Of a DNA stretch of 64,000 bases, positions 1,229 through 49,843 are shown piece after piece; the stretch's first letter is position 1, and every line of letters begins with the position of its first letter. The translations under genes and the position numbers were made by a program. The notes beneath the pieces were generated by a model that saw nothing but the letters and a program-made list of their open reading frames with translations, searched no databases and was not told the origin of the DNA. Source of the DNA: Patescibacteria group bacterium (GTDB lineage: Bacteria; Patescibacteriota; Patescibacteriia; UBA2591; UBA4787); the NCBI GenBank assembly GCA_028715115.1, contig JAQUSN010000002.1, positions 210,816 to 274,815 on the forward strand, given 5' to 3'.

Positions 1229-2934
1229 TTTAGGGATTTTAATAAATTATTTAATGACATTGAATTAACGACGTCTTTTTTCTCTATCCAGCCGCGGCGC
1301 GCTATGGCTACGCCAAATTTTATGTTTTGTAATTCAGATATATAATGCGAATCAGTAGAGATGGCAAATTTAACGCCAAAGCTTTTGGCCGTGCGAGCGT
1401 TTACATCGTTTAAATCTAACCTATTCCACTGTGAATTAATTTCTAAAATAGTTTTATTTTTTTTCGCTTCACGATAAATTTCTTCCAAATCTACATTAAT
1501 CGGTTCGCGCCGATTAATTAACCTCGTGGTAGGATGAGCAATAATATCGACGTTAACGTTTCTGACAGCATTAACAATTCTCTTCGTCATTTCCGCCCTT
1601 GGTTGTTTAAAATAACTGTGCACCGAAGCCACAACTACGTCTAGCATAGACAAAACCTTATCAGGCAAACTCAATGATCCATCTTTGTGAATGTCAATTT
1701 CAATTCCCGATAAAATTTTAAAATCTTTGAGAGACTTATTCGCTTTTTTTATTTCTTTCAATTGCTTTATCACTCTGTCTGCCGTTAAACCGTGCGTAAT
1801 GCCTATGGTCGCATCATGATCGGTGATGGCAATATATTTATAACCAAATTTTTTGGCCGCTTGCGCCATCTCTAAAATAGTTTGCGCTCCCTCTGACCAA
1901 ATTGAATGAACATGTAAATCTCCTTTAATATCTTTTTGAGTTATTAATTTTGGCAAAGCGCTTTTTCTGGCCGCTTCGATTTCACCGGTATTTTCCCTTA
2001 TTTCCGGAGGAATCCAGGGTAAATCAATGGCCTTAAAAACATCCATTTCTTCGCGACCGCCAATTTTTCGCCCCCCGCGTTTATAAATTCCATATTCGTT
2101 AATTTTTAAGCCCTTACTAATACCAATTTTTCTAGTAGCAATATTATGAGCTTTTGAACCGGTAAAATAATATAATGCCGCGCCGAACGAATCTGGCTCG
2201 ACCACCCTAAGGTCTGCTTCCAATCCTCTCTTTAAAAAAACATTGGCCTTGGTTGGTCCGGAAGAGAGAATGTTTTTGACTTCCGGCAATTGGCAAAAGA
2301 AGTTGATGGCCTGCTGTGGCCTTTTGCTGGTAGCCAAAAAATCTAAATCGCCCACCGTTTCTTTGCTGCGCCGAAAACTGCCGGCGATTTCTGCCCTATC
2401 GATAATGTAATTTTTTTTAAGTTCATGAAGTATTTTTTGAACTAAATCATCAACTTGGCCTAAGGGTAATCGCTGGGAAAATTTTTCATACAGACCCAAG
2501 CCCTCTTTTATATTATTGACTGTTTTCTCGCCCCAGCCCCTTTGGCTTTCCAATTTATGACTATTTAATAACTTTTTAAGGTCAGATATAGATTTAACTT
2601 TGAATTTTTTATAAATGAATTTTACTTTTTTGGGGCCAAGTCCGTTTATTCGCAACAGCTCAACTAAACCGCGCGGCAGGCTGTTTATAATTCTATCCAG
2701 TTCCACTGAATGGCCTTTTGTAATTAAATCTTTAATATGTTGAGCGATTTTTTCGCCGATCCCGGGAATTTCTTTTAATTTATCGTCTTGATAAATATCT
2801 TTGATGTCTTGTGGTAAAGATTCGATAGATAAAGCAGCTTGCCGATAAGCATTAGCTCTAAAAGGATTAGCGTTTTTTAATTCTAAAACGTCGGCAATTT
2901 CATTAAAAATTTTTGCTATTTCAATATTGTCCAT
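1225..2934 (-). CDS. polX: DNA polymerase X family protein (Pol beta-like nucleotidyltransferase with a C-terminal PHP phosphoesterase domain).
   Basis: N-terminal HhH/Pol-beta-like region (GIGEKIA, GSFRRSKETVGDLD) and C-terminal PHP motifs (HVHS...DH...SHY). Confidence 0.85.
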   Translation of the reverse strand: MDNIEIAKIFNEIADVLELKNANPFRANAYRQAALSIESLPQDIKDIYQDDKLKEIPGIGEKIAQHIKDLITKGHSVELDRIINSLPRGLVELLRINGLGPKKVKFIYKKFKVKSISDLKKLLNSHKLESQRGWGEKTVNNIKEGLGLYEKFSQRLPLGQVDDLVQKILHELKKNYIIDRAEIAGSFRRSKETVGDLDFLATSKRPQQAINFFCQLPEVKNILSSGPTKANVFLKRGLEADLRVVEPDSFGAALYYFTGSKAHNIATRKIGISKGLKINEYGIYKRGGRKIGGREEMDVFKAIDLPWIPPEIRENTGEIEAARKSALPKLITQKDIKGDLHVHSIWSEGAQTILEMAQAAKKFGYKYIAITDHDATIGITHGLTADRVIKQLKEIKKANKSLKDFKILSGIEIDIHKDGSLSLPDKVLSMLDVVVASVHSYFKQPRAEMTKRIVNAVRNVNVDIIAHPTTRLINRREPINVDLEEIYREAKKNKTILEINSQWNRLDLNDVNARTAKSFGVKFAISTDSHYISELQNIKFGVAIARRGWIEKKDVVNSMSLNNLLKSLK

Positions 2935-2947
2935 AGTAATACGTTCT

Positions 2948-2976
2948 ATTATACATAGAAACTACTTATATAACAA
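2948..2976 (-). promoter_or_regulatory. Putative sigma70 promoter for the polX-GT2 operon (TTGTTA, 17 nt spacer, extended -10 TGTATAAT).
   Basis: Read on the minus strand upstream of the polX start. Confidence 0.35.
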
Positions 2977-3030
2977 GTTTGTTTTAATTATAATTCATCA
3001 TTATTAAGCATTTCTTGAAGATGCGAGAGG

Positions 3031-3060
3031 TTGACAAAAATTAATAAAATGATAATATAT
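3031..3060 (+). promoter_or_regulatory. Consensus-like promoter of the 'TTGACAAAA..AAAATGATAATAT' family (cassette a).
   Basis: TTGACA at 3031-3036 and an AT-rich -10 about 17 nt downstream. The same architecture recurs at about ten other sites. Confidence 0.45.
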
Positions 3061-3080
3061 ATTTATCTGGAGGTTGAAGA

Positions 3081-3194
3081 ATGAACAGAAAGATGAGTCC
3101 CTTGGAGTTTCTCGCGGAGATTCTTGACACCATCAGAAACGTGATCGTTTTGGCTATAACAGCAGCTGGACTACTCTTCAATGTGGGCTGTTAG
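3081..3194 (+). CDS. Small hydrophobic peptide of 37 aa (MNRKMSPLEFLAEILDTIRNVIVLAITAAGLLFNVGC). GC-richer than its flanks.
   Basis: GGAGG ribosome-binding site at 3069-3073 with 7 nt spacing to the ATG. One predicted TM helix. A strong terminator follows. Confidence 0.45.
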   Translation: MNRKMSPLEFLAEILDTIRNVIVLAITAAGLLFNVGC

Positions 3195-3205
3195 TCCAGG
3201 CCAAA

Positions 3206-3238
3206 GGGCGGGTGTTCTCAACCCGCCCTGTTGTTTTA
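3206..3238 (+). terminator. Rho-independent terminator (GGGCGGGTGTTCTCAACCCGCCC + TGTTGTTTT).
   Basis: Perfect 8 bp GC stem followed by a T tract. Confidence 0.6.
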
Positions 3239-3243
3239 TCTAA

Positions 3244-3272
3244 ATATAAAAAGGCCTCTTCGTATGGCCTCT
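3244..3272 (-). terminator. Terminator downstream of ppdK (AGGCC..GGCCT stem followed by TTTTT on the minus strand).
   Basis: Hairpin followed by a T tract directly after the ppdK stop. Confidence 0.45.
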
Positions 3273-3287
3273 TTATATAGAAACAAC

Positions 3288-5948
3288 TTACTTAGATGTA
3301 TGCTCTATTTTTAATTTTCTTTTAACCACCGCCTGCGCCGCGGCAATTCTGGCAATCGGTACGCGATATGGAGAACAGCTGACATAATTCATACCTGCTT
3401 CATAACAAAACCCTATGCTAGCTGAATCGCCCCCATGCTCGCCACAAATTCCAATTTTTAAACCTTTCTTTACGCTTCGTCCCTTATTAATGCCAATTTT
3501 TACCAATTGCCCTATTCCCTCCTGATCTAAAGATTGAAACGGATCGGCTGCAATAATTTTTTTATTTAAATAAACCTTTATAAACTTACCTGAATCGTCG
3601 CGTGAAAAACCCATCCCCATTTGCGTTAAATCATTAGTACCAAAAGAGAAAAAATCCGCTTCTTGGGCAATTTGATCGGCTGTTACCGCGGCTCGCGGGA
3701 CTTCAATCATGGTGCCAACCAAATATTCAATCTTAGTTTTATATTGCTTCATAACTTCGGCGGCGATTTTTTTAACCACGTCTTTTTGATTTTTAAGCTC
3801 GTTAACATTACCGACCAATGGAATCATTATTTCCGGAACAACCTTAATATTTTCTTTTTTTAATTCACAGGCTGCAGAAATAATAGCCCGAACTTGCATC
3901 TCGGTAATTTCCGGGTAGGTGATGCCGAGCCGGCAGCCGCGATGACCAAGCATCGGATTAAATTCGTGAAGCTCTTGCGCCTTTGCCCAAATCTTTTCTT
4001 CGGAAATTTTTATTTTTTCCGATAACTCTTTGGCTTCTTTTTGATCCTTTGGCAAAAATTCATGAAGCGGCGGATCAAGGGTGCGAACCGTCACCGGATA
4101 ACCTCTCATCTCTTTGAATAATTCCTTGAAATCTTCTTTTTGAAATGGCAATAATTTATTTAAAGCCGCTCGTCTGGTTTCTTCGGTATCGGCAATAATC
4201 ATCTCCTGTATGTACGGCAGTCTATCTTTGTCAAAAAACATATGTTCGGTTCGGCAGAGCCCAATGCCTTCAGCGCCAAATATTCGCGCCATTTTAGCAT
4301 CGCGCGGCATATCGGCATTGGCTCGTACCTTTAATTGCTTAATTTCATCAACCCATTTCATTAATTGACCAAATTCTCCGCTTAAAGTTGGTTGCACAGT
4401 AGCCACTTTTCCCAAAATAATTTGACCGGTATTGCCATCAAGCGTCAGCCAATCACCTTCATTAACGATATTTTTACCTAAATGAAATTTTTTATTTTTT
4501 TCATCGACTTTCAGTTCTTCACAACCCACCACGCAACAACGGCCCATGCCCCTGGCCACTACGGCCGCATGACTGGTCATACCGCCTCTGGCGGTTAACA
4601 CTCCTTGCGCCACTTCCATACCGTGAATATCATCGGGGCAAGTTTCGGTACGCACCAAAATTACCGGTTTATCTACGCCTAAGGCTGTTGCCTCTTCGGA
4701 ACTAAACACAACATGACCGACTGCCGCCCCTGGTGAAGCCGGCAAACCTCGTCCAATAGCTTGCGATTTAATTTTTGGATCTAAGATTGGATGTAATAAT
4801 TGATTAATTTGCTCCGGCTCAACGCGTAAAATAGCCACCTCTTTGGAAATCATTTTTTCTTTTACCATATCAACGGCATTTTTTATGGCCGCTCGCGCTG
4901 TTCTTTTACCAGTACGAGTTTGTAGAATATACAGTTTATTTTTTTCTACCGTAAATTCAAAGTCCTGCACGTCTTTATAATGTTTTTCTAAACGCTTAGT
5001 AATTGTTTTTAGTTGCCTATATACCAGCGGCATATCTTTGGCTAAACTGGCGATTGGCTGTGGCGTTCTAACTCCCGCCACCACATCTTCGCCCTGGGCA
5101 TTAATTAAATATTCTCCATAAAATTGATTTTCGCCCGTAGCCGGATTTCTTGTAAAACCGACGCCGGTTGCGCAATCGTTGCCCATATTTCCAAAAACCA
5201 TAACCTGAATATTAACGGCCGTTCCTAAATCATCGGATATTTTATTTAAACGGCGATAAGTCTGCGCCCGAGGATTGTTCCAACTTTTAAATACGGCATC
5301 GCGCGCCATTTTTAATTGCTGATACGCATCGACCGGTAAATCATGTTTAGTAATTTCTCTGATTAATTTTTTATACTGACTGATTATCTCTTTTAAATCA
5401 TCTTCCCTTAAATCAAAGTCGTATTTAATATTCCTTTTTTCTTTTATTTCTGTAAGGATTTCTTCGAATTGTTCTTTGGCTATTCCCAAAACCACATTAC
5501 CGAACATTTGAATAAACCGGCGATAAGTATCATAAACAAATCGAGGATTTTTCGTGGTTTTGATTAGATTTACCACATTCTCATCATTCAAACCCAAATT
5601 CAAAATCGTATCCATCATGCCGGGCATAGAAAATCTAGCGCCACTGCGGACTGAAACCAATAACGGGTTTTTACTATCGCCTAATTTTTTATTAACGCTT
5701 TTTTCTATTTTTTTAAGCGCAGATTTTATTTGTTTGTCCAGTTCAGATGGTAATTTATTATTATGATCATAAAAATAATTACAAACCTCGGTAGTAATCG
5801 TAAAACCAGGCGGCACCGGTACTCCAGCCTTGGCCATATCAGCTAACCCCGCGCCCTTGCCTCCCAACGTGTCTTTCATTGTTATATTACCTTCAGTTTC
5901 ACGATCGCCAAAATAATAAACCAATTTCTGCGTTCTTTTTTTTGCCAT
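3288..5948 (-). CDS. ppdK: Pyruvate, phosphate dikinase.
   Basis: 886 aa. N-terminal ATP-grasp region, central phosphohistidine domain (GGMTSHAAVVARGMG) and C-terminal PEP-utilizing TIM barrel. Confidence 0.9.
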   Translation of the reverse strand: MAKKRTQKLVYYFGDRETEGNITMKDTLGGKGAGLADMAKAGVPVPPGFTITTEVCNYFYDHNNKLPSELDKQIKSALKKIEKSVNKKLGDSKNPLLVSVRSGARFSMPGMMDTILNLGLNDENVVNLIKTTKNPRFVYDTYRRFIQMFGNVVLGIAKEQFEEILTEIKEKRNIKYDFDLREDDLKEIISQYKKLIREITKHDLPVDAYQQLKMARDAVFKSWNNPRAQTYRRLNKISDDLGTAVNIQVMVFGNMGNDCATGVGFTRNPATGENQFYGEYLINAQGEDVVAGVRTPQPIASLAKDMPLVYRQLKTITKRLEKHYKDVQDFEFTVEKNKLYILQTRTGKRTARAAIKNAVDMVKEKMISKEVAILRVEPEQINQLLHPILDPKIKSQAIGRGLPASPGAAVGHVVFSSEEATALGVDKPVILVRTETCPDDIHGMEVAQGVLTARGGMTSHAAVVARGMGRCCVVGCEELKVDEKNKKFHLGKNIVNEGDWLTLDGNTGQIILGKVATVQPTLSGEFGQLMKWVDEIKQLKVRANADMPRDAKMARIFGAEGIGLCRTEHMFFDKDRLPYIQEMIIADTEETRRAALNKLLPFQKEDFKELFKEMRGYPVTVRTLDPPLHEFLPKDQKEAKELSEKIKISEEKIWAKAQELHEFNPMLGHRGCRLGITYPEITEMQVRAIISAACELKKENIKVVPEIMIPLVGNVNELKNQKDVVKKIAAEVMKQYKTKIEYLVGTMIEVPRAAVTADQIAQEADFFSFGTNDLTQMGMGFSRDDSGKFIKVYLNKKIIAADPFQSLDQEGIGQLVKIGINKGRSVKKGLKIGICGEHGGDSASIGFCYEAGMNYVSCSPYRVPIARIAAAQAVVKRKLKIEHTSK

Positions 5949-5963
5949 TTTATAATATATTAC

Positions 5964-6182
5964 TTAATTAATTTCTATAATTTTACTTTTAGTTTTATGA
6001 CCGATTGCAATAGATATCCTTGATGCTGGAATTTTAAAATATTCGCTTAATAATTTTATAACCGCTTGATTGGCTTTGCCTTGTTTAGCCGGCGCATTGG
6101 TAAAAACCACATATTCGCATTCGCCTATTTTCATAACTTCATTTTTTTTCACGCCGGGCTTAACTTTTACCAGTATTTTCAT
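5964..6182 (-). CDS. DUF167/YggU family small protein.
   Basis: 72 aa with the typical YggU-like beta-rich sequence. Sits immediately upstream of ppdK on the same strand. Confidence 0.6.
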   Translation of the reverse strand: MKILVKVKPGVKKNEVMKIGECEYVVFTNAPAKQGKANQAVIKLLSEYFKIPASRISIAIGHKTKSKIIEIN

Positions 6183-6204
6183 AATCCTAATAAAATAAAA
6201 ATAT

Positions 6205-6232
6205 ATTTTAGTATATATTCCATACTTGTCAA
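6205..6232 (-). promoter_or_regulatory. Putative promoter of the yggU-ppdK operon (TTGACA, 16 nt spacer, TAAAAT).
   Basis: Read on the minus strand about 25 nt upstream of the yggU start. Confidence 0.35.
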
Positions 6233-10044: not shown

Positions 10045-10127
10045 ACCAACCACGGAGGACTTGTTCTAGGTCCACCTCAACAGGTCGGTTCTGTAAAGGA
10101 GCCACTCGTAGGTGGGCCTTTGCTTTT

Positions 10128-10200
10128 ATACAAAAAGACGAGATTGTTCTCGCCTTGTTTTTTATATAAAAAGACGAGTGTTCTTGCTCGTCTTTTTATA
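10128..10200 (+). terminator. Tandem terminators of the 'AAAAAGACGAG..CTCG' family.
   Basis: AAGACGAG TGTTCTT GCTCGTCTT perfect hairpin followed by TTTTAT. An upstream partial copy is GACGAGATTGTTCTCGCC. Confidence 0.6.
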
Positions 10201-10217: not shown

Positions 10218-10595
10218 TTAATCTGCCTTATTCTCTGTTGTTATTAATGCTACTTTTGGGCTTGAACCATACTTATTATCGCCAGGTTGACTATTTTTTA
10301 AAGCAAAGATAGCTAAAATAATAGCTCCGATAAAAGGAATCAAGCCAAGAAGCAGCCACCAACCGCTAAAATTAATATCATGAAGCCTGCGCGCACCCAC
10401 CGCTAAACTCGGCGTTAACACTGCTAAACCATACAAAAGATTAATTATTCTATCTTTATCGCCTATTATAGCTGCGATGATGCCGAGCAAAACACCGATA
10501 ATAAAATTCCACAGAACAAAATTCCAATACTCCTTTCTGCTCGCGCGACCGCTAAAACCCAGATAATTCCTAATGACCATTAGGTAATATTTCAT
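10218..10595 (-). CDS. DUF805 family membrane protein.
   Basis: GRASRKEYW..RRLHD motifs typical of DUF805. Confidence 0.7.
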   Translation of the reverse strand: MKYYLMVIRNYLGFSGRASRKEYWNFVLWNFIIGVLLGIIAAIIGDKDRIINLLYGLAVLTPSLAVGARRLHDINFSGWWLLLGLIPFIGAIILAIFALKNSQPGDNKYGSSPKVALITTENKAD

Positions 10596-10627: not shown

Positions 10628-12868
10628 TTATTTTCTAAAACCATGAATAATGTTTTGCCAAACGGGAGCTAGTCGAGTATTCACAAAACCCGTAACAGTA
10701 ATATTGCCAATAATTGGTTGTGCTACTGAACCTATGCTGGCGACACCAAATTTACGTAAGAAAGAACTCCAAAGAGAACCAGAGCTGCCGGTCAAACCAG
10801 AAATGGGCAATGGCGTAATTTCTGTTGGCGGGGTTGATGGTAAAGGAACAATCTCCTCTGGTATGGTCGGGGTCGGAGTCGGAACTGGCGCTGGGGTTGG
10901 AATAACTGGCGGAATAATTACGGGTTGAATAATTTCTTCACCTAAAGTAGTAAAACAATATTCTGGGCTAACAGTTATGGGACTGCGAGAAACAACTCTA
11001 TAACAATAAACAGTTGAAGGTAATAAATTATATAATGACACTGAATGGAAAAGAACAGCCGGACTAACATTATATTCAGGGGTGGCGTAGACATACCCAA
11101 GTTTTGGCGGATTATCTGAAACCTGACTTAAATCAAGAAGATGTGGCTCATTCTCTTGAGAATAAATAATATAGCTTGTTGCCAAAAGATTAGTATACCA
11201 AGTAAACGCAGCACTACTTTCTGAACGTGAAACTAGTTTTTCATTATAAATTACTAGTGGCACACCACCACCACCTCCTCCTCCACCTCCTCCGCAAGAT
11301 TGTGTATTACAAACTAGACTTGAATCACCTTCGCAATTTTTTCCGCCATTAGCCGGCGCAGGATTAGTGCAAGTTCTTGTTTTGGTCCCACCACCGCAAC
11401 TTACAGAACAAGCACTCCAATCCGACCAACCGCCATCTATTGGCGTGGGCGGCGGAGCTGCCTGGATATCGTTATTAGTAATGGTACAACTTTTGTTGTC
11501 ACCGATAGCTAAAGTAATAACACCATCAGCATCACAATCTCCGCTAAAAGTTGCCGTATAACCACTCGGGCCTTGTTCAGAAACAAGGTAAGTCCCTACT
11601 GGAAAATTATTTGTTTCACCGCTAACAACCTGAGTTTCGCCAACATAAAGAGAAAAGTCGCTAACTTGAGAGGTACCGCCATCGTCATTAATAACCACCT
11701 TGGTAACCGTAAGCGCAGCGCAGTCTGGCGAATATGGAGTAATTTTTATTGGTTCATCAGTAAACTTAAATGTAAAAACAGATTTATCTACATGTCTCTC
11801 GGCAAAAAATATTTGAATAAGATGAGGGCCAGCGGTTAAATGTACAAATCCGTATTTATGTGTTTCACTATGAACCCCTCCGTTATCTATAGCCAAGACT
11901 CCGTCTATATAAACCCAAGAGTCATCATCAGAACCTAAATCATAATAATAGTCAGCTTCTGTTTCGATAGAGGCTACACCAGCCCAAGTCACTCCTAAAT
12001 GAAAATCATGGCCGTAATAAATTTCTTCTGCTGCCATATCGAAAGGAAAAAAGTTTTTACCAAAATCTACCGAGCTGTCTATTCTTGAAAATCTAAAATA
12101 AGATTGATCATACCAATCAGCAGTCCACGGATCCACATAACTCAACGGATCGCCATGCGTCCGGTCGGGCCATTTAGAAGGAGGCAAATTCATGTCCTTG
12201 TGGTGAATAGAATAATTAAAATACTCGCCATACCAACCGCTACCAACTATATCTGGACAAGTTAATTGTTCTAATTCACACGTAGCAGAACATCCATCTC
12301 CGTTAATATTATTATGGTCATCGCATTCTTCGCCATCATCTTTTACTCCGTCACCACACGTAGACAAAACAGGAGCCAAAGATAATGGAGCTAAAAATAA
12401 ATTTATTGGACTATCGTCATTAGTAATAGTACAAACCTTTGATTCGCCTGCTTTTAATAATATATTGCCATTTGAGTCGCAATCACCGCTAAAAGTTGCC
12501 GTATAACCGCTCGGGCCTTGTTCAGAAACAAGGTAAGTCCCTACTGGAAAATTATTTGTTTCACCGCTAACAACCTGGGTTTCGCCAACATAAAGAGAAA
12601 AGTCATCAACCTGAGAAACGCCGCCATCGTCATTAATAACCACTTTTACGATTTTGATTGAAGCTAATTCATTATCAGAATTATTAGGAGCCGATAAAAT
12701 AACGTCCGTGGATGTAGTAGATGCATTGGAGCTAAAGATATCGGCTAATAATTCTTCGGCTGAAACATAATCAAAAGACATAACCGACGATATCATTATC
12801 ATTAAACTAATCAGAAAAACTTTACCCTTGTGTTTGTGATTAATGAGTTTTAATAGAATGTTTTTCAT
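10628..12868 (-). CDS. Large secreted multidomain surface protein: signal peptide, two copies of a roughly 60 aa Ig-like repeat, a Myxococcus-type Cys-rich repeat, a PA14-like domain, a thrombospondin type-1 repeat, a poly-Gly linker, an FN3-like region and a Pro/Thr-rich C-terminal tail.
   Basis: [19 protein letters not shown] (Cys-rich repeat). [20 protein letters not shown] (TSP1 consensus WSxWSxCSxTCGxG). PA14-like [16 protein letters not shown] region. GGGGGGGGGG linker. Confidence 0.7.
11536..11698. repeat. Intragenic direct repeat, copy 1. About 163 bp, nearly identical to 12480..12643.
   Basis: The DNA is almost identical, with only a few mismatches, and encodes the duplicated Ig-like repeat. 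Confidence 0.7.
12480..12643. repeat. Intragenic direct repeat, copy 2.
   Basis: See copy 1. The two copies are 944 bp apart. Confidence 0.7.
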
Positions 12869-13284
12869 AAAAACGTTTTTATTTTACTTGTTTAGATATT
12901 AAGATTAAATGCTTAAATTATTTTTTGTATAAATAAAAGATGACCCTAAATAATAAAAGGCTCATTTATTTCTCGGTTCCAAATTATAGTGCAACACCGT
13001 CCAGCCTCCGTTTCGATTATAAAAAACCAGGACAAGCGCTGCCTTTTTGTCTACATTTTGTCAGCATTCAAAGCGCTATCTACTGTCATATTTTAAATAT
13101 TATTAAAATATGATTAACAGAGTATAAAACGCTTCTATTGCTTATAATACAAGAGGACGCTTTAGAGGTCCTCCTGTATATTAAATATATAATTATATCA
13201 TTAATTGTCAAGGCAGGTTTATCCACAAACACAAATATATGCATTAAAATAAGAGCATTTGCGCATCTATTCAATAATTTACTC

Positions 13285-13313
13285 TTGACAAAATTATAAA
13301 ATATGCTAATCTA
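13285..13313 (+). promoter_or_regulatory. Promoter TTGACAAAATTATAAAATATGCTAATCT (cassette e, first unit).
   Basis: Close match to the promoter at 9823. Confidence 0.45.
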
Positions 13314-13346
13314 TATTCATTGATCGAGGGTCTAAAAAGGAGCTAC

Positions 13347-13409
13347 ATGAAGAAGCTGAAGCCCGATCTTACGTTGATGCACACCCTGTACTGCGCGAGC
13401 GGCGACTGA
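13347..13409 (+). CDS. Possible 20 aa leader peptide (MKKLKPDLTLMHTLYCASGD).
   Basis: Good ribosome-binding site (AAAAAGGAG) 6 nt upstream. Followed by an ORF-free GC-rich region. Confidence 0.25.
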   Translation: MKKLKPDLTLMHTLYCASGD

Positions 13410-13580
13410 TCGCGGACCCGGGCCGGCCCGAACCGGTCGATCCATGGAGGAATAATGAGCGGATTCGTCTAAGAACCAGCCAGGTGCGGGTAAAACCCGC
13501 ACTAGTCCCACAATTAGGGGATGGTTCGAACCGGCGAATACATCCCTGAAGGAGCGTCCTGTGGCGCTCCTTTTCTTTTA
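13410..13580 (+). ncRNA. GC-rich untranslated segment ending in a terminator (AGGAGCG..CGCTCCT + TTTTCTTTT). Candidate small RNA or cis-regulatory leader.
   Basis: No ORF. Internal repeats of 'CGAACCGG'. A terminator hairpin at 13549-13580. Confidence 0.25.
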
Positions 13581-13594
13581 TATTATAGCGTGGC

Positions 13595-14139: not shown

Positions 14140-14240
14140 GTAGGGCTCGCAGAAAGCAAAACCAAATGGGTTTCGCCTACTCGCGAGCCCATTTGATTAT
14201 TATAAAAAGACGAGATTACTCTCGCTTTCTTTTTTTTTGT
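14140..14240 (+). terminator. Nested hairpins plus a copy of the shared 'AAAAAGACGAGATTACTCTCGC' terminator module.
   Basis: GGGCTCGC..GCGAGCCC and AAATGGG..CCCATTT stems, then GACGAGATTACTCTCGC followed by T9. Confidence 0.5.
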
Positions 14241-16497: not shown

Positions 16498-16585
16498 GCT
16501 CACCAAGAGTCTCCAGCAAATGGGACTCGACGTGAGCCTTTTGCTTTTACAAAAAAAGACGAGATTACTCTCGCCTCTTTTTATC
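16498..16585 (+). terminator. Hairpin GGCTCAC..GTGAGCC followed by TTTTGCTTTT, then the shared 'ACAAAAAAAGACGAGATTACTCTCGCCTCTTTTTAT' module.
   Basis: Same terminator module as at 10128 and 14205. A variant occurs at 27661. Confidence 0.55.
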
Positions 16586-45498: not shown

Positions 45499-46686
45499 TC
45501 AGTCACCGCTGCAGTTGGTACAATTACTGCAAAATGCTTTTGATTGATATCGACGACAAAGAGCGCAAACTTCGCAAGATTGAAGAGCGCGTTTATAAAC
45601 ACGGACTTCATCTTCTAGACCGTTGGAGTAATAACCACCTGAGTACGTTCCTATATTAGTGCTACTGCCGGTTATTAATGATCCTGAAACATTTTGCTGT
45701 GTTGTTTGCGAAGCATCAATATAGGCAGTCAATTTTGAACCGTTATAAGTAAAGCTTAAAAAATGCCAATTACCATCTGTCAAACCAGATCCCGAATTAA
45801 ATACTTGTCTACTCATCGTATTAGTAGTTACGCCGGTTCTAATCTGACCGCCAGAATCAGGAACGCTATTTTCGATTTGTGTACCTTGCATAAAAATAAT
45901 ATGATAACCACTTGCCGGGACTCCTAATCTTTTAAACCAACCAATCACAGATACATATTCAGGTGGGTTTACCGGATTAACCTTTACATAATTGCTTGTT
46001 CCATTAAAACTTAAACAATTGCCAGAGATACAATTTGATGTTTGCCAAGTCGGACCAGCTGCCGGGCAAGTACTAGCATCACACAATTGTCCGTTATTGG
46101 CATAGGCAGATGAATCATTAGCATCAGTTCCGCTGCCTTCATTAAAGTGCCAATCACCCACAATTGAGGTGTCTTGGTATTGCTGTTGGTTGGTCATAAT
46201 CTGATTTAAGGTCGTATTGGTCAAAGAGATTTGACTGGTTTGAGCTCCGGCAGATTTGTAGATCTCATAGTAGCTTGAAGCAGTGCCGTTGTCGCTTGAG
46301 GCAGAAGCGGTATCTCGTTCCAGATAGACAGCTAACTTGTAATTGATGCCAGTTGAATCAGAAATATAGTAATAGCAGTATTTGGAAGAATTGGGGTCAG
46401 TGGGCAAAGAAGAAAGATAGGTGGAATTAATCAGAGCAGTAATTAAAGGATTGTAAGGGTCTGAAGTACAACCTCCTGAAGCCCAAATGGGATAAACCCC
46501 ATTAGTATTAAGATAAAGATCAAGTGTTTTAGAGAATTGGTTTAAGTCCCCTATTCTTCGCACATCCCTGGCTTTGGCCGAAGCTGTAGAAACAGAGGTT
46601 AAGGCAATAGCTGAGAGAAGACCGATAATGGCGACTACGACCAGGAGTTCGATCAAGGTGAAGCTTCTGCGAGAACGGCTAGACAT
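45499..46686 (-). CDS. Type IV pilin-like protein (prepilin N-terminal methylation motif) with a C-terminal LamG/concanavalin-like domain.
   Basis: SFTLIELLVVVAIIGLL class III signal. A LamG-like region (DWHFNEGSG..NCLSFNG..) and a Cys-rich C-terminus. Confidence 0.7.
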   Translation of the reverse strand: MSSRSRRSFTLIELLVVVAIIGLLSAIALTSVSTASAKARDVRRIGDLNQFSKTLDLYLNTNGVYPIWASGGCTSDPYNPLITALINSTYLSSLPTDPNSSKYCYYYISDSTGINYKLAVYLERDTASASSDNGTASSYYEIYKSAGAQTSQISLTNTTLNQIMTNQQQYQDTSIVGDWHFNEGSGTDANDSSAYANNGQLCDASTCPAAGPTWQTSNCISGNCLSFNGTSNYVKVNPVNPPEYVSVIGWFKRLGVPASGYHIIFMQGTQIENSVPDSGGQIRTGVTTNTMSRQVFNSGSGLTDGNWHFLSFTYNGSKLTAYIDASQTTQQNVSGSLITGSSTNIGTYSGGYYSNGLEDEVRVYKRALQSCEVCALCRRYQSKAFCSNCTNCSGD

Positions 46687-47263: not shown

Positions 47264-49843
47264 TTAAAGCGTCGAAGTTGGAGTAGAAGCAGGACCGTAA
47301 TTAGGCGTAGTTGGTTTTTTGTCTAATTCAATTGCTTTGGCTCTTTCTAAAATTTCGCTCTCAACAACCGCTTTGGGTCGGCCGTATTTTAAGTGCGACA
47401 TTTCTTTTACTAACTTCGCCACTTCTTCGTTCCCTTTGCGCGGCGGCATGCCCAACATATTAAACGGCCTGACTGCTTCTTTATCAACCAGTAATTTCAC
47501 GTAAGCGTTAAATCGCTCAACATTAATTAAATCATATTCATTTAAAACGGGCGCAAATTGTTTAACCAAAACTTGCGCATCTTCAATGCCGATATTAAAA
47601 GCTATCATCGTGCCTACCGTGCCCAGCACCGCGTCGCGAATTGAAGTGTCGTTATTTTTTGTCAGCTGCCCCATATATTGATGGGCAATGGTCAGATCAA
47701 GTTTATATTTTCTCGCTTCGGACAAAATCACGCCAATCGTATCAGTGATAAAATTCTGGAACTCATCAATGTATAAATAAAAATCTCGGCGATTTTCTTC
47801 GGTGGTATCAGCGCGTGAAAACGCGGCCATAGTAATTTTACCAACGATAACTAAGCCCAAAAGATATGCATTCAGATCTCCCACCAAGCCTTTTGGCAAG
47901 GTTACCAGCACGATTTTGCCTTCGTCCATGGCCTTGCGGAAATTAAAAGCACTGGCCTGCTGGCCGATAATCGGCCGCATAATATCGTTAGAAATAAATT
48001 GATTCAACTTTGAAGTGATATAAGGAGTCATGTTGGAAAGAGCTGCTTCACCGCCAGCCTTCTCGGCTTCTTTAATCCAGAAATCGCGCACTACCGGATT
48101 GGTACAATGTTTTAATTTAAAATGGCGGAATTCAGGGTCGGCCATTACTTTGGGAATTTCCATTAGCGTCGAACCGGATTCGGGATGTTCCATAATCAAC
48201 AGCATGGCGTTACGCATATATTGTTCGAACATCGGGCCACCGGTTTGGCGCAAATCATAAAGCTTATCCATTATCTTAATCATTTCGTTAATCACAAAAG
48301 TTTTTTGTTCCGGATATTTTGAATCGTATTCAAGTAGATTCAAGCCCATCGGCCTATCAATATTGGCCGGATTAAAATAAATTACGTCCTCAGCTCGCTC
48401 TTTGGGAACGTTAGCTAAAATATTTTCCACTAAATCGCCATTCGGATCAATAACGCAAACGCCCTCGCCGTTTTCGATATCTTGAATGGCCATATTGGAG
48501 ATCAGGACGGATTTACCCACGCCGGTTTTACCGATTAGATATACATGTCGGCGGCGATCGTCGCGTTTAATGCGGATAATTTTTTCTTCTCCGCGATAAA
48601 TGTTTTTGCCTAAAATAATTCCTTCGGTCGGAATATTAACCGGCGCCGGAGCCTTCTTGGCTAAGAGCCACTGAATATTCGGCACTTCGGTAATTGATAA
48701 AGGAAAATGAAACAAACTGGTCAACTCTTCAGTATTTAAAACAAAACCGGTAGACGGAATAAAATCGCGATAAATAAAATTACGAACTACGTTAGCCGAG
48801 GCGCTGGTTGGCACGGCCTTAAAACCATTGCCATATTCATAACCGGTATACTGAGCAAAAGAATTTAAAATATTTTGCAAAGACATTTTAGCCGCATTTT
48901 TGTCCTGGCTGGCCACGACTATTCTAATATTAATATCAAGTCCTGCTTTCGAACTTTTTGCCTCTAAACCTTTGATTATCTCTTGCTCCATTGGTGAAAG
49001 CTGATGTGGCTTATTTATATCTTTTAACTGGTCTTTTTTGTTATCGGTGGCATAAAAACTTTTCACGAATTTCCAAACGCCGCCCTTTTTCTTGCTCATC
49101 ACTTCGCTCAACTTTTTTCCTTGCTGCATTTCAGTCGCAATCTTGGCGCCGACGCGATGCCACTCGGCATTAGCCGAACGCGCGACTATCTGAATAGCTG
49201 CCGAGCTGCCCTGCGGAATCTTTGATAAAGAAGTTAAAATGCCATTTAATGGATCATTTTCTAGCTGTTGGTAAGTTTTAATGGGAAAGGCCCATTTATT
49301 ACGAAGTTTGAGGTAGGCCGACTCGATTTGGGATTTAGAATCAAAAAGATTATAATCTTCAACTGTTTCGATTTGGGCGGCCGGATGTTGAGCATGAATT
49401 TGCTGTTCAACAAATTGCCTTAAAGATTTTGGCATCACGACGTAAAAACGGATCACGCCATCCTTGTTGATTACTATTTCAAAACTAATATGATCGTTAC
49501 GGCCCAAAAAATTTACCTTCAAACCGTGTTGAGCTTTTAATCCGCCGATATTAGCAAAAAAACCTTCCATCGGCGATAGCAAATCCTTGATTTGCTTTTG
49601 TTGTTTATTGTCGTCGCCACTCGATTCTTTGGGCACGGTGATTAATAAAACCACTTTGTCAAAAGCAGTCGAAAAACGGGCTATATTTTTTAAATAATTT
49701 TTTAATACAGCGAAAATAATTAAAAATAAAATAATAATTCCGATAAAAATTAAAAAATAAATGAAAAATCCGCCACTAAGCAATCCTATTCCTGCTTGTT
49801 GGGCGGTATTGAGATCTAAACTTGGCACTTGAAGATCATTCAT
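47264..49843 (-). CDS. Membrane-anchored P-loop ATPase of the type IV secretion/conjugation superfamily (VirD4/TraG- or VirB4-like, DUF87-like).
   Basis: N-terminal TM segment. Walker A LIGKTGVGKS followed by VIDPNGD. Walker B YLYIDEFQNF. An AHQYMGQL motif. Confidence 0.5.
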   Translation of the reverse strand: MNDLQVPSLDLNTAQQAGIGLLSGGFFIYFLIFIGIIILFLIIFAVLKNYLKNIARFSTAFDKVVLLITVPKESSGDDNKQQKQIKDLLSPMEGFFANIGGLKAQHGLKVNFLGRNDHISFEIVINKDGVIRFYVVMPKSLRQFVEQQIHAQHPAAQIETVEDYNLFDSKSQIESAYLKLRNKWAFPIKTYQQLENDPLNGILTSLSKIPQGSSAAIQIVARSANAEWHRVGAKIATEMQQGKKLSEVMSKKKGGVWKFVKSFYATDNKKDQLKDINKPHQLSPMEQEIIKGLEAKSSKAGLDINIRIVVASQDKNAAKMSLQNILNSFAQYTGYEYGNGFKAVPTSASANVVRNFIYRDFIPSTGFVLNTEELTSLFHFPLSITEVPNIQWLLAKKAPAPVNIPTEGIILGKNIYRGEEKIIRIKRDDRRRHVYLIGKTGVGKSVLISNMAIQDIENGEGVCVIDPNGDLVENILANVPKERAEDVIYFNPANIDRPMGLNLLEYDSKYPEQKTFVINEMIKIMDKLYDLRQTGGPMFEQYMRNAMLLIMEHPESGSTLMEIPKVMADPEFRHFKLKHCTNPVVRDFWIKEAEKAGGEAALSNMTPYITSKLNQFISNDIMRPIIGQQASAFNFRKAMDEGKIVLVTLPKGLVGDLNAYLLGLVIVGKITMAAFSRADTTEENRRDFYLYIDEFQNFITDTIGVILSEARKYKLDLTIAHQYMGQLTKNNDTSIRDAVLGTVGTMIAFNIGIEDAQVLVKQFAPVLNEYDLINVERFNAYVKLLVDKEAVRPFNMLGMPPRKGNEEVAKLVKEMSHLKYGRPKAVVESEILERAKAIELDKKPTTPNYGPASTPTSTL

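Follow-up and report, generated by a model that had tools for sequence, protein, structure and literature searches.

A modular secreted protein of a Patescibacteria group bacterium, with a PA14 domain and a compact thrombospondin type-1 repeat, as a candidate adhesin

The 64,000-nucleotide stretch of Patescibacteria group bacterium DNA analysed here (the window; assembly GCA_028715115.1, contig JAQUSN010000002.1) encodes, on its reverse strand at 10628-12868, a protein of 746 amino acids (aa). It is best read as a Sec-exported, disulfide-rich, modular binding protein, surface-located or secreted, that follows a fibrillar-adhesin-like plan and in which the cores of two SpaA_2 stalk domains have been homogenised by gene conversion, a reading to which we give a probability of about 0.6. 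The open reading frame (ORF), 2241 nucleotides (nt) in the ORF list with its stop codon, lies exactly where an earlier note on this DNA had placed it and has the length claimed there, although the description of its product as giant does not hold for 746 aa, an ordinary size. The product is 100% identical to the NCBI entry 'MAG: hypothetical protein PHV78_03680 [Patescibacteria group bacterium]' (P0001), where MAG stands for metagenome-assembled genome. Little is known at the molecular level of how bacteria of the candidate phyla radiation (CPR)/Patescibacteria adhere to their hosts or to surfaces, and the protein is a credible candidate adhesin, concrete and expressible, whose PA14 head and compact thrombospondin type-1 repeat (TSR) are modules that can be tested for ligands. 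Its domains are all catalogued ones, the protein itself stands without annotation in public MAGs, and no paradigm is changed by it.

Domain organisation and proposed function

From the N-terminus, the protein comprises a signal peptide, a SpaA_2 domain, a Cys-rich repeat, a PA14 domain, a second SpaA_2 domain, a TSP1 repeat, a run of ten glycines, a fibronectin type III (FN3)-like domain, a Pro/Thr-rich stalk and a short tail. The full-length AlphaFold (AF2) model, built from a 60-row domain-trimmed alignment (A3), displays six folded modules, with the linkers, the Gly run, the stalk and the tail disordered. The signal peptide (aa 1-37; 12758-12868, on the reverse strand like every feature of this gene) bears a basic n-region, a hydrophobic core with the top Kyte-Doolittle window of the protein (1.95 at aa 17), and an EE cleavage-like site that was placed by inspection and not by a predictor; the model folds aa 16-29 into a helix and leaves the Ser/Thr-rich linker that follows (aa 38-67) disordered. 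The two regions that the earlier note described as Ig-like repeats are in fact SpaA_2 stalk domains of the prealbumin/transthyretin-like type (PF19403; 53.3 bits against a cut-off of 25, E 4.4e-14, in two stretches, the better at aa 384-463), with hundreds of homologous domains among the matches of the homology searches. Copy A occupies aa 68-152 (12413-12667) and is modelled with a predicted local distance difference test (pLDDT) score of ~84-92, and copy B occupies aa 385-467 (11468-11716) with a pLDDT of 90-97.

Between the two stalk domains lies the presumed head. Its first part is an acidic Cys-rich repeat (aa 167-203; 12260-12370; pLDDT ~78-82) with the pattern CGDG..EECDD..GDGCS..C and four cysteines at positions 171, 182, 193 and 197, which matches the Myxococcus-type repeat TIGR02232 (myxo_disulf_rpt) with 42.4 bits against 20.8 over aa 169-201, and which stays under the cut-off for Pfam DUF4215 (24 against 27). 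A phmmer search of the PDB also matches this repeat (aa 170-204; 12257-12361) to residues 866-903 of human pappalysin-1 (PAPP-A; E ~7e-5), making it one more module that surface proteins of prokaryotes have in common with an extracellular protein of animals. The PA14 domain (aa 204-384; 11717-12259), which contains insertions and is flanked by Cys204 and Cys383, is marginal by itself, scoring 26.8 bits against 24 for PF07691 over aa 280-364 and, under the cut-off, 34 bits for the Fibro_Slime family TIGR02148. Support comes from P0002, the close relative described below, whose PA14 modules score 86 bits and share 51-55% identity with this one. The conserved DD pair of the PA14 motif is presumably the DcisD calcium site of Flo/Epa adhesins. 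Foldseek matches of the PA14 model include the β-glucosidase of K. marxianus (3ac0), the RsgI3 polysaccharide sensor (6qe7) and the sugar-binding PA14 domain of an RTX adhesin (6m8m; target-normalised TM-score 0.54), which agrees with the β-barrel of solved PA14 structures, the model itself being of moderate quality. PA14 domains bind carbohydrate, often with Ca2+, and the Cys-repeat and PA14 head is likely a glycan-binding unit.

The compact TSR (aa 476-525; 11294-11443; PF00090), which bears six cysteines, follows the second stalk domain and is modelled within the full-length protein with a pLDDT of 80-87. Both the Gly10 run and the Pro/Thr-rich stalk announced in the earlier note are directly visible in the sequence. 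The former (aa 526-535; 11264-11293; pLDDT <50) is a putative hinge encoded by an imperfect GGA/GGT trinucleotide tract (GGAGGAGGTGGAGGAGGAGGTGGTGGTGGT), and the latter (aa 646-700; 10769-10933; pLDDT 30-43) is disordered, with 53% Pro, Thr and Ser. Between them stands a domain missing from the note's list, the FN3-like domain (aa 536-645; 10934-11263; pLDDT up to 94), of the Pur_ac_phosph_N type (PF16656; 30.6 bits against 30, aa 547-641), which Foldseek matches to 3b83 with a target-normalised TM-score of 0.71-0.74. The tail (aa 701-746; 10631-10768) has low pLDDT and no convincing membrane anchor. The tract of glycine codons is a possible site of in-frame slippage, P0002 having six glycines in place of ten; no variation in its length occurs among the three assemblies that carry the gene.

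The note's assignments of TSP1, PA14 and Myxococcus-type Cys repeats are therefore borne out by the Pfam/HMMER annotation that it had proposed, by TIGR02232 and by matches in the PDB. Its view of a secreted, adhesin-like architecture likewise agrees with the signal peptide, with the combination of PA14 and SpaA stalk domains known from fibrillar adhesin-like proteins (Monzon, Lafita and Bateman 2021, PMC8286594), and with the distribution of the 18 cysteines, an even number of which falls in each domain (2, 4, 2, 2, 6 and 2), suggesting intradomain disulfides in an exported protein.

The Cys-repeat and PA14 module is widespread. Run exhaustively against 1.84 billion representatives, an HMMER search with aa 160-385 finds 401 proteins at E <= 1e-30, dozens of which match the full unit at 46-54% identity, and among the sources with a name are Woesearchaeota and Nanoarchaeota (P0074, P0108); this search was used in place of a word-indexed search with the module alone, which gave 6 weak matches and missed known relatives. 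The closest relatives follow a plan of DUF4215-PA14, stalk domains (SdrD_B, SpaA or DUF11) and a C-terminal FN3-like domain of the Pur_ac_phosph_N type. P0002, P0054, P0086, P0040, P0079 and P0099 all contain a cassette made up of poly-Gly, FN3-like domain and low-complexity stalk, and a poly-Gly run stands before the FN3-like domain in P0002, P0054, P0086, P0099 and P0110. In the relatives, the cassette ends in a strong transmembrane helix with a basic tail, or in an LPATG signal; sortase-type signals are LPATG in P0099 and IPETG in P0048.

The only long homologue is P0002, from a MAG labelled uncultured Candidatus Saccharibacteria (GCA_964485905.1, contig CAZAJY010000035.1), which is 51% identical over aa 162-713. 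The two proteins have in common the order of Cys-repeat, PA14, a middle part, compact TSR, poly-Gly, FN3-like domain and Pro-rich stalk, as well as the motif PIS(G/E)LTGS(S/T)GSL, which precedes the C-terminal tail in the window protein, and each gene carries a homogenised internal pair of modules. P0002 differs in having no SpaA_2 domain, two Cys-repeat and PA14 modules, extra Cys repeats, Gly6 instead of Gly10 and genuine C-terminal transmembrane helices. The database call of P0002 (1098 aa, no signal peptide) appears N-terminally truncated; the full open frame, at 2074-6216 of the forward strand of its locus (L001), encodes 1381 aa with a signal-peptide-like start, MEKRFLKFLGRKKLRIILGSFAIGI.

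Judged against PMC8286594, where PA14 is a common and promiscuous adhesive domain and the SpaA family the common stalk, the PA14 domain, the two SpaA_2 domains and the FN3-like domain together agree with the adhesive-plus-stalk definition of a fibrillar adhesin-like protein. Such proteins, exemplified by RTX adhesins (PDB 6m8m), share with the window protein PA14 and stalks of the SpaA family or FN3 type, a signal peptide and a low-complexity stalk. By comparison, the window protein is much shorter, lacks a known anchor and features of RTX proteins or type I secretion, and has its PA14 domain fused to a Myxococcus-type Cys-rich repeat. It also carries a TSR, a domain not named in the passages of that paper covered by the comparison, in which a text search for 'TSP' returns nothing.

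In the proposed mechanism, the protein would be exported via Sec and folded with intradomain disulfides, after which two rigid SpaA_2 β-sandwiches would brace the Cys-repeat and PA14 head. The compact TSR, likely a second ligand-binding unit, would stand after the second SpaA_2 domain, and the Gly10 hinge, the FN3-like domain and the Pro/Thr stalk would lend reach and flexibility from the cell-proximal end, the poly-Gly, FN3-like and stalk cassette being the membrane-proximal end in relatives, closed by a transmembrane helix or sortase signal. With the anchor missing or degenerate here, the protein would be released or held non-covalently, and retention by the membrane protein of the DUF805 gene downstream, speculative as this is, would be possible. 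What the data show is the ORF, the identities of its domains and the support for their folds, the uneven divergence of the repeat, the identity across assemblies and the distribution of the modules; that the protein is exported, forms disulfides, is oriented in this way, binds ligands and adheres to host cells or other surfaces is predicted and not observed. The link to an episymbiotic lifestyle, which the note had drawn, would be plausible.

Several points weigh against this reading. The function is deduced from domain composition alone. The PA14 and FN3-like scores barely exceed their cut-offs, the insertions of the PA14 model are of low confidence (pLDDT 48-58 over aa 221-290), and only one of five AlphaFold models of the TSR by itself, made from 27 compact units (A2), is confident (pLDDT 83.9), the other four lying near 40. 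With two or three stalk domains, the protein is short for a fibrillar adhesin. No C-terminal anchor is found, the maximum Kyte-Doolittle average over 19 residues being 1.31 (<1.6) and no LPXTG-type motif with a transmembrane helix and basic tail being present; an LTGS-type motif followed by a weakly hydrophobic 45-aa tail does not make a sortase substrate, and translation of the 3' end in three frames reveals no hydrophobic ORF that might hide an anchor. Since the anchor of the relatives is absent, a location at the cell surface is not established, although nearly half of the fibrillar adhesin-like proteins surveyed in PMC8286594 are likewise without a known anchor. The neighbouring genes, those for BipA, UppP, PPDK, PolX, RNR, HisRS and UvrAB, are housekeeping genes and give no indication of a host-interaction locus. 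Finally, the dockerins borne by the PA14-module relatives P0074 and P0110 point to contexts of polysaccharide utilisation and not of host adhesion.

The missing anchor and the dockerin relatives favour the main rival explanation, namely that the protein is no host adhesin and is instead a released, unanchored binder of polysaccharide or particles, serving nutrient scavenging or matrix attachment, whose PA14 domain binds substrate glycans. The fibro-slime similarity to Fibrobacter-type proteins and the Foldseek matches to a β-glucosidase and a polysaccharide sensor are in keeping with such a role. Neither the protein nor the adjacent genes contain a catalytic domain, however, the stalk-like C-terminal cassette is membrane-proximal in relatives, and TSRs elsewhere in prokaryotes sit on pilin N-termini and beside VWA domains, as is typical of cell-surface adhesion, so that a released binder is the less likely account, if one that keeps a real share of the probability. 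A purely structural protein of the envelope or S-layer, with domains that act as spacers and scaffolds and bind no specific ligand, is improbable: β-sandwich stalks, the Pro-rich segment and the FN3-like domain account for roughly half of its length, and the FN3-like cassette is common to many otherwise different CPR surface proteins, but PA14 domains and TSRs bind ligands wherever they have been studied (PDB entries), and the window has just one such gene, lacks repeats of the S-layer type and yields no paralogue to tblastn.

The internal repeat of the stalk domains

The second element of the preferred reading, intragenic gene conversion between the SpaA_2 domains, is drawn from an internal DNA repeat. 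The earlier note reported almost identical copies of 163 bp, a repeat that is real, with 152 of 163 positions identical (93.3%) between 11536-11698 and its partner at a spacing of 945 nt, although the near-identical part is just 119 nt and the second copy starts at 12481 and not at 12480. Control spacings of 944 and 946 nt leave only 52-55 of 163 positions identical, and a repeat search delimits the pair as 11523-11701 and 12468-12646 (179 nt, 91%). The spacing equals 315 codons and is in frame, with the PA14 module lying between the copies, which are therefore not in tandem. The core, 12486-12604 in copy A and 11541-11659 in copy B, is 119 nt long, differs at 2 positions at this spacing and has a longest exact run of 68 nt; outside it the domain ends differ heavily, the C-terminal thirds being strongly divergent.

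This unevenness is apparent at the codon level. A Nei-Gojobori count over 83 aligned codons of the two copies gives proportions of synonymous (pS) and nonsynonymous (pN) differences of 0.14 and 0 in the 41-codon core, as opposed to 0.70 (dS ~2, saturated) and 0.28 in the 42 flanking codons, and the four differences within the 41-codon core are all synonymous. Conservation of the amino acid sequence offers no explanation for identity at synonymous sites, and shuffling of codon columns yields a 119-nt stretch with at most 2 mismatches in 0 of 20000 trials. The copies are also each other's closest relatives, with 66 of 78 aa identical (85%) as compared with <=74% to any of ~390 external SpaA_2 domains, which fits concerted evolution. 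The best reading of this pattern is that the SpaA_2 domains are old duplicates, of whose cores ~120-165 nt were homogenised by intragenic gene conversion; the exchange would have acted across the intervening 945 nt and have been followed by four synonymous changes.

The note had offered a very recent duplication or gene conversion, and it is the second of these that stands. A very recent duplication of the whole repeat, for which the mutual closeness of the copies and their in-frame spacing might be cited, is highly improbable, because it would leave uniformly low divergence whereas the flanks are saturated, and because a different module separates the copies. An assembly artefact in the form of a chimeric or collapsed repeat, conceivable in that the sources are short-read metagenome assemblies, is rejected on the strength of independent identical assemblies and the codon-level pattern: three assemblies agree over the entire coding sequence (CDS), and one of these has 6 single-nucleotide polymorphisms (SNPs) elsewhere, the longest exact repeat is just 68 nt, the repeat is in frame with only synonymous differences in its core, and both copies are modelled as complete SpaA_2 domains. 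The two further public assemblies are L002 (GCA_028713815.1) and L003 (GCA_028686935.1), and the 6 SNPs that distinguish L002 from the window all lie outside the gene, which implies that at least two slightly different populations share exactly the same gene.

Homogenisation is not confined to this gene. That of P0002 has an internal duplication with a homogenised pair of its own, ~630 nt with 2 mismatches (L001 ~3030-3666 and ~4311-4947), which involves the Cys-repeat and PA14 module and not a stalk domain as in the window gene. Intragenic exchange thus seems to be a habit of the gene family. The tract in the window gene indicates that non-adjacent stalk domains exchange sequence, a point of relevance wherever 'recent duplications' are read from the surface proteins of MAGs. 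The suggestion that the repeat is a hotspot for variation in repeat number found no backing: the copies are not in tandem, no copy-number variation occurs across the three identical assemblies, and P0001 is the sole member of its 90% cluster. In principle, homologous recombination between the exact runs of 68 nt could remove the PA14 module in frame; no such deletion variant is seen among the three assemblies.

The compact thrombospondin type-1 repeat

The TSP_1 assignment (PF00090) is secure, since aa 480-525 reach 35.1 bits where the gathering score is 21.6 (E 1.6e-8), and a phmmer search of the PDB returns the TSRs of human thrombospondin-1 at E 4e-16. The repeat is not, however, the plain eukaryote-like one that the note took it for, but a distinct compact variant. 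When aa 475-525 are aligned with TSR2/TSR3 of thrombospondin-1 (TSP-1), UNC5, ADAMTS13 and properdin (phmmer, PDB), the same three gaps open every time: one of three residues in the Trp strand, where WSDW stands against WxxWxxW, one of two residues in the Arg strand, where TKTRTC stands against xRxRxC, and one of two residues in the third strand. The six cysteines, at 487, 491, 500, 512, 520 and 525, align with those of TSP-1 in the canonical order, while the complete ladders of Trp (WxxWxxW) and Arg (RxRx) are absent, with only WSDW and K-T-R in their place. Taken from the alignment and not from coordinates, the coordinated loss of 3+2+2 residues would amount to the removal of one rung of the Cys/Trp/Arg ladder.

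The spacing of these residues sets the compact form apart. The TSR of the window protein belongs to the spacing class (6,8,7), and in seven prokaryote-looking proteins (P0001, P0002, P0010, P0024, P0048, P0097 and P0117) all 31 units have 6 for the distance from the first Trp to the first Cys and 8 for that between the second and third Cys, 29 of them agreeing with the full class. Among ~370 units in 31 eukaryote-type proteins, by comparison, the distance between the second and third Cys is below 10 in none, and (9,10,9) is the prevailing class; the query being compact itself, compact eukaryotic units, if common, should have ranked high. The repeat is accordingly a shortened variant of the TSP_1 family, and mainly a prokaryotic form. 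The structure prediction of this segment, which the earlier note had proposed, is divided: the best model, the single confident one, finds nothing but TSRs among its top 50 Foldseek matches in the PDB (TM 0.4-0.65), the best scores (~0.6) going to the short TSRs of complement C6-C9, and the remaining four models are of low confidence.

Animal TSRs (TSR2/TSR3 of human TSP-1, PDB 1lsl, 3r6b and 7yyk; UNC5; properdin; ADAMTS13) have the six cysteines in the same order, at ~50% identity, and share with the window repeat the motifs WxxW, CSxxCGxG, R-x-C and NP.P..GG and, in its one confident model, the predicted three-strand fold. The window repeat departs from them in having (Q/K)xR and not RxRx, WxxW and not WxxWxxW, and (6,8,7) spacing and not (9,10,9). 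To our knowledge, there is no reason to expect the eukaryotic O-fucosylation and C-mannosylation on the window repeat. The apicomplexan adhesins TRAP and MIC2 (PDB 4okr), of which MIC2 is among the PDB matches of the window TSR (phmmer), are likewise microbial surface proteins with a TSR beside an adhesive domain, and here the counterpart stalk is membrane-tied in relatives of the window protein. They differ in that the partner of the window TSR is PA14 and not VWA, and in that the window organism is a bacterium. The pairing of VWA and TSR seen in TRAP and MIC2 also occurs in CPR proteins; three CPR-labelled proteins (P0010, P0024 and the ORF at 2240-4639 of L004) join VWA to arrays of compact TSRs, which could reflect convergence or a shared history.

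The note's statement that TSP1 is rare in bacteria is correct in part. A scan with a compact-TSR profile of one genome per prokaryotic species gives 245 pattern matches, 191 of them confirmed. The repeat is rare across prokaryotic species as a whole, but at least 191 stretches carry it, and among the best 80 of these, sorted taxonomically by record title, 41 belong to CPR lineages (Saccharibacteria-labelled, Moran-, Yanofsky-, Kaiser-, Nomura-, Paceibacterota, Woese-, Shapiro-, Magasanik- and others). The rest of the best 80 comprises 10 loci from MAGs of Gammaproteobacteria/Pseudomonadales, 6 from records of an unclassified 'bacterium' label, 5 from Bdellovibrionota/Oligoflexia, 4 from Myxococcota/Deltaproteobacteria, 3 each from DPANN archaea, MAGs of Rickettsiales and other Proteobacteria, 2 from Planctomycetales, and 1 each from a Methanosarcinales-labelled archaeon, Omnitrophota and Thermodesulfovibrionia. 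These loci contain 104 compact and 16 long units, three of them having both, a count biased by the compact query. Two compact-TSR relatives occur in 2.9 million viral contigs.

Among the Pfam partners in 64 TSR-bearing ORFs of these loci are VWA and the pilin N-terminal methylation motif (3 each), a sortase domain (1), PKD, FN3, dockerin and SdrD_B; the top 25 include neither PA14 nor SpaA_2, and the combination of TSR and PA14 is seen only in P0001 and P0002. Fusions of compact TSRs to type IV pilin-like N-termini are found in P0117 and in ORFs at 3026-4153 of L008, 242-1687 of L046 and 2975-4402 of L048, from a Rickettsiales MAG, a Moraniibacteriota MAG and a Bacteriovoracaceae MAG, which suggests that several lineages display TSRs on pili.

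A broader proposal, tentative and with the odds somewhat against it, is that the compact TSR is a prokaryote-specific or prokaryote-enriched subclass, one rung short, that has spread as a cell-contact module mainly among host-dependent, episymbiotic or predatory lineages. Its carriers would be CPR, DPANN, Bdellovibrionota and Rickettsiales-like MAGs, with the repeat carried by pilins, by proteins with VWA domains and by PA14 adhesins. TSP1 has been treated as an animal domain that was passed to Apicomplexa (PMC3417536), and a search of a limited collection of papers for TSRs in Patescibacteria, DPANN or Bdellovibrio returned nothing relevant, only TSP type-3 repeats or generic 'thrombospondin genes'. 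Were the proposal true, the relation of the compact to the animal and apicomplexan TSR, whether through an ancestor or through early inter-domain transfer followed by shortening, would inform the origin of a hallmark domain of the animal extracellular matrix. The prokaryotic TSRs themselves make up a class recognisable by its reduced length and found chiefly in organisms living on or inside other cells, which provides a handle on a shared adhesion toolkit as well as on the evolutionary history of the TSR fold.

Gene neighbourhood

The window has a GC content of ~38% and nearly all of its genes on one strand, as is typical of a small-genome bacterial stretch. The composition of the adhesin-like gene is normal, with a GC of 0.40 and a third-position GC (GC3) of 0.27 over the whole gene; as GC3 is 0.26 in the TSR segment, a recent horizontal acquisition of the repeat leaves no compositional signal and was set aside. 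Downstream, beginning 32 nt past the stop codon, lies a gene for a DUF805 membrane protein (10218-10595, reverse strand; PF05656, E 8.5e-32). The order of the two genes is kept in L002 and L003, and no terminator-like site separates them, the first on that strand being at 10156-10135; the DUF805 gene is probably co-transcribed with the adhesin-like gene.

Upstream, ~725 nt (12869-13594) are poor in ORFs and hold no convincing one. The best match to a σ70-like promoter in this stretch is a candidate at 13184-13211 (reverse strand; TTGACA-16-TATATT, 11 of 12 positions, a consensus match only), which lies 316 nt before the start codon and so would imply either an element not recognised as such or a long leader. 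In an Rfam scan that took in the entire window, three tRNAs are the only matches, and none falls in the 725-nt stretch.

A hairpin of the form CGAGATT(GT/AC)TCTCG recurs in the window at 10139-10152, 14211-14224 and 16560-16573. The first two copies lie at terminator-like sites just beyond the ends of the DUF805 and BipA genes, and the hairpin is doubled in tandem after the DUF805 gene (36-nt tandem repeat, 10116-10187). It may be a genome-specific terminator or an element resembling repetitive extragenic palindromes (REP-like).

Elsewhere in the window, at 45499-46686 on the reverse strand, a protein of 395 aa is a fusion of an N-terminus bearing the methylation motif of type IV prepilins (PF07963) and a lectin domain of the ConA-like kind (Laminin_G_3, E 1.4e-19). 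It makes another candidate adhesin of the window, one that a pilus would presumably display. Just downstream of the neighbourhood of this pilin-lectin gene, the reverse strand at 47264-49843 encodes a protein of 859 aa with a modest match to T4SS-DNA_transf (33.9 bits against 20.1), the family of type IV secretion coupling proteins.

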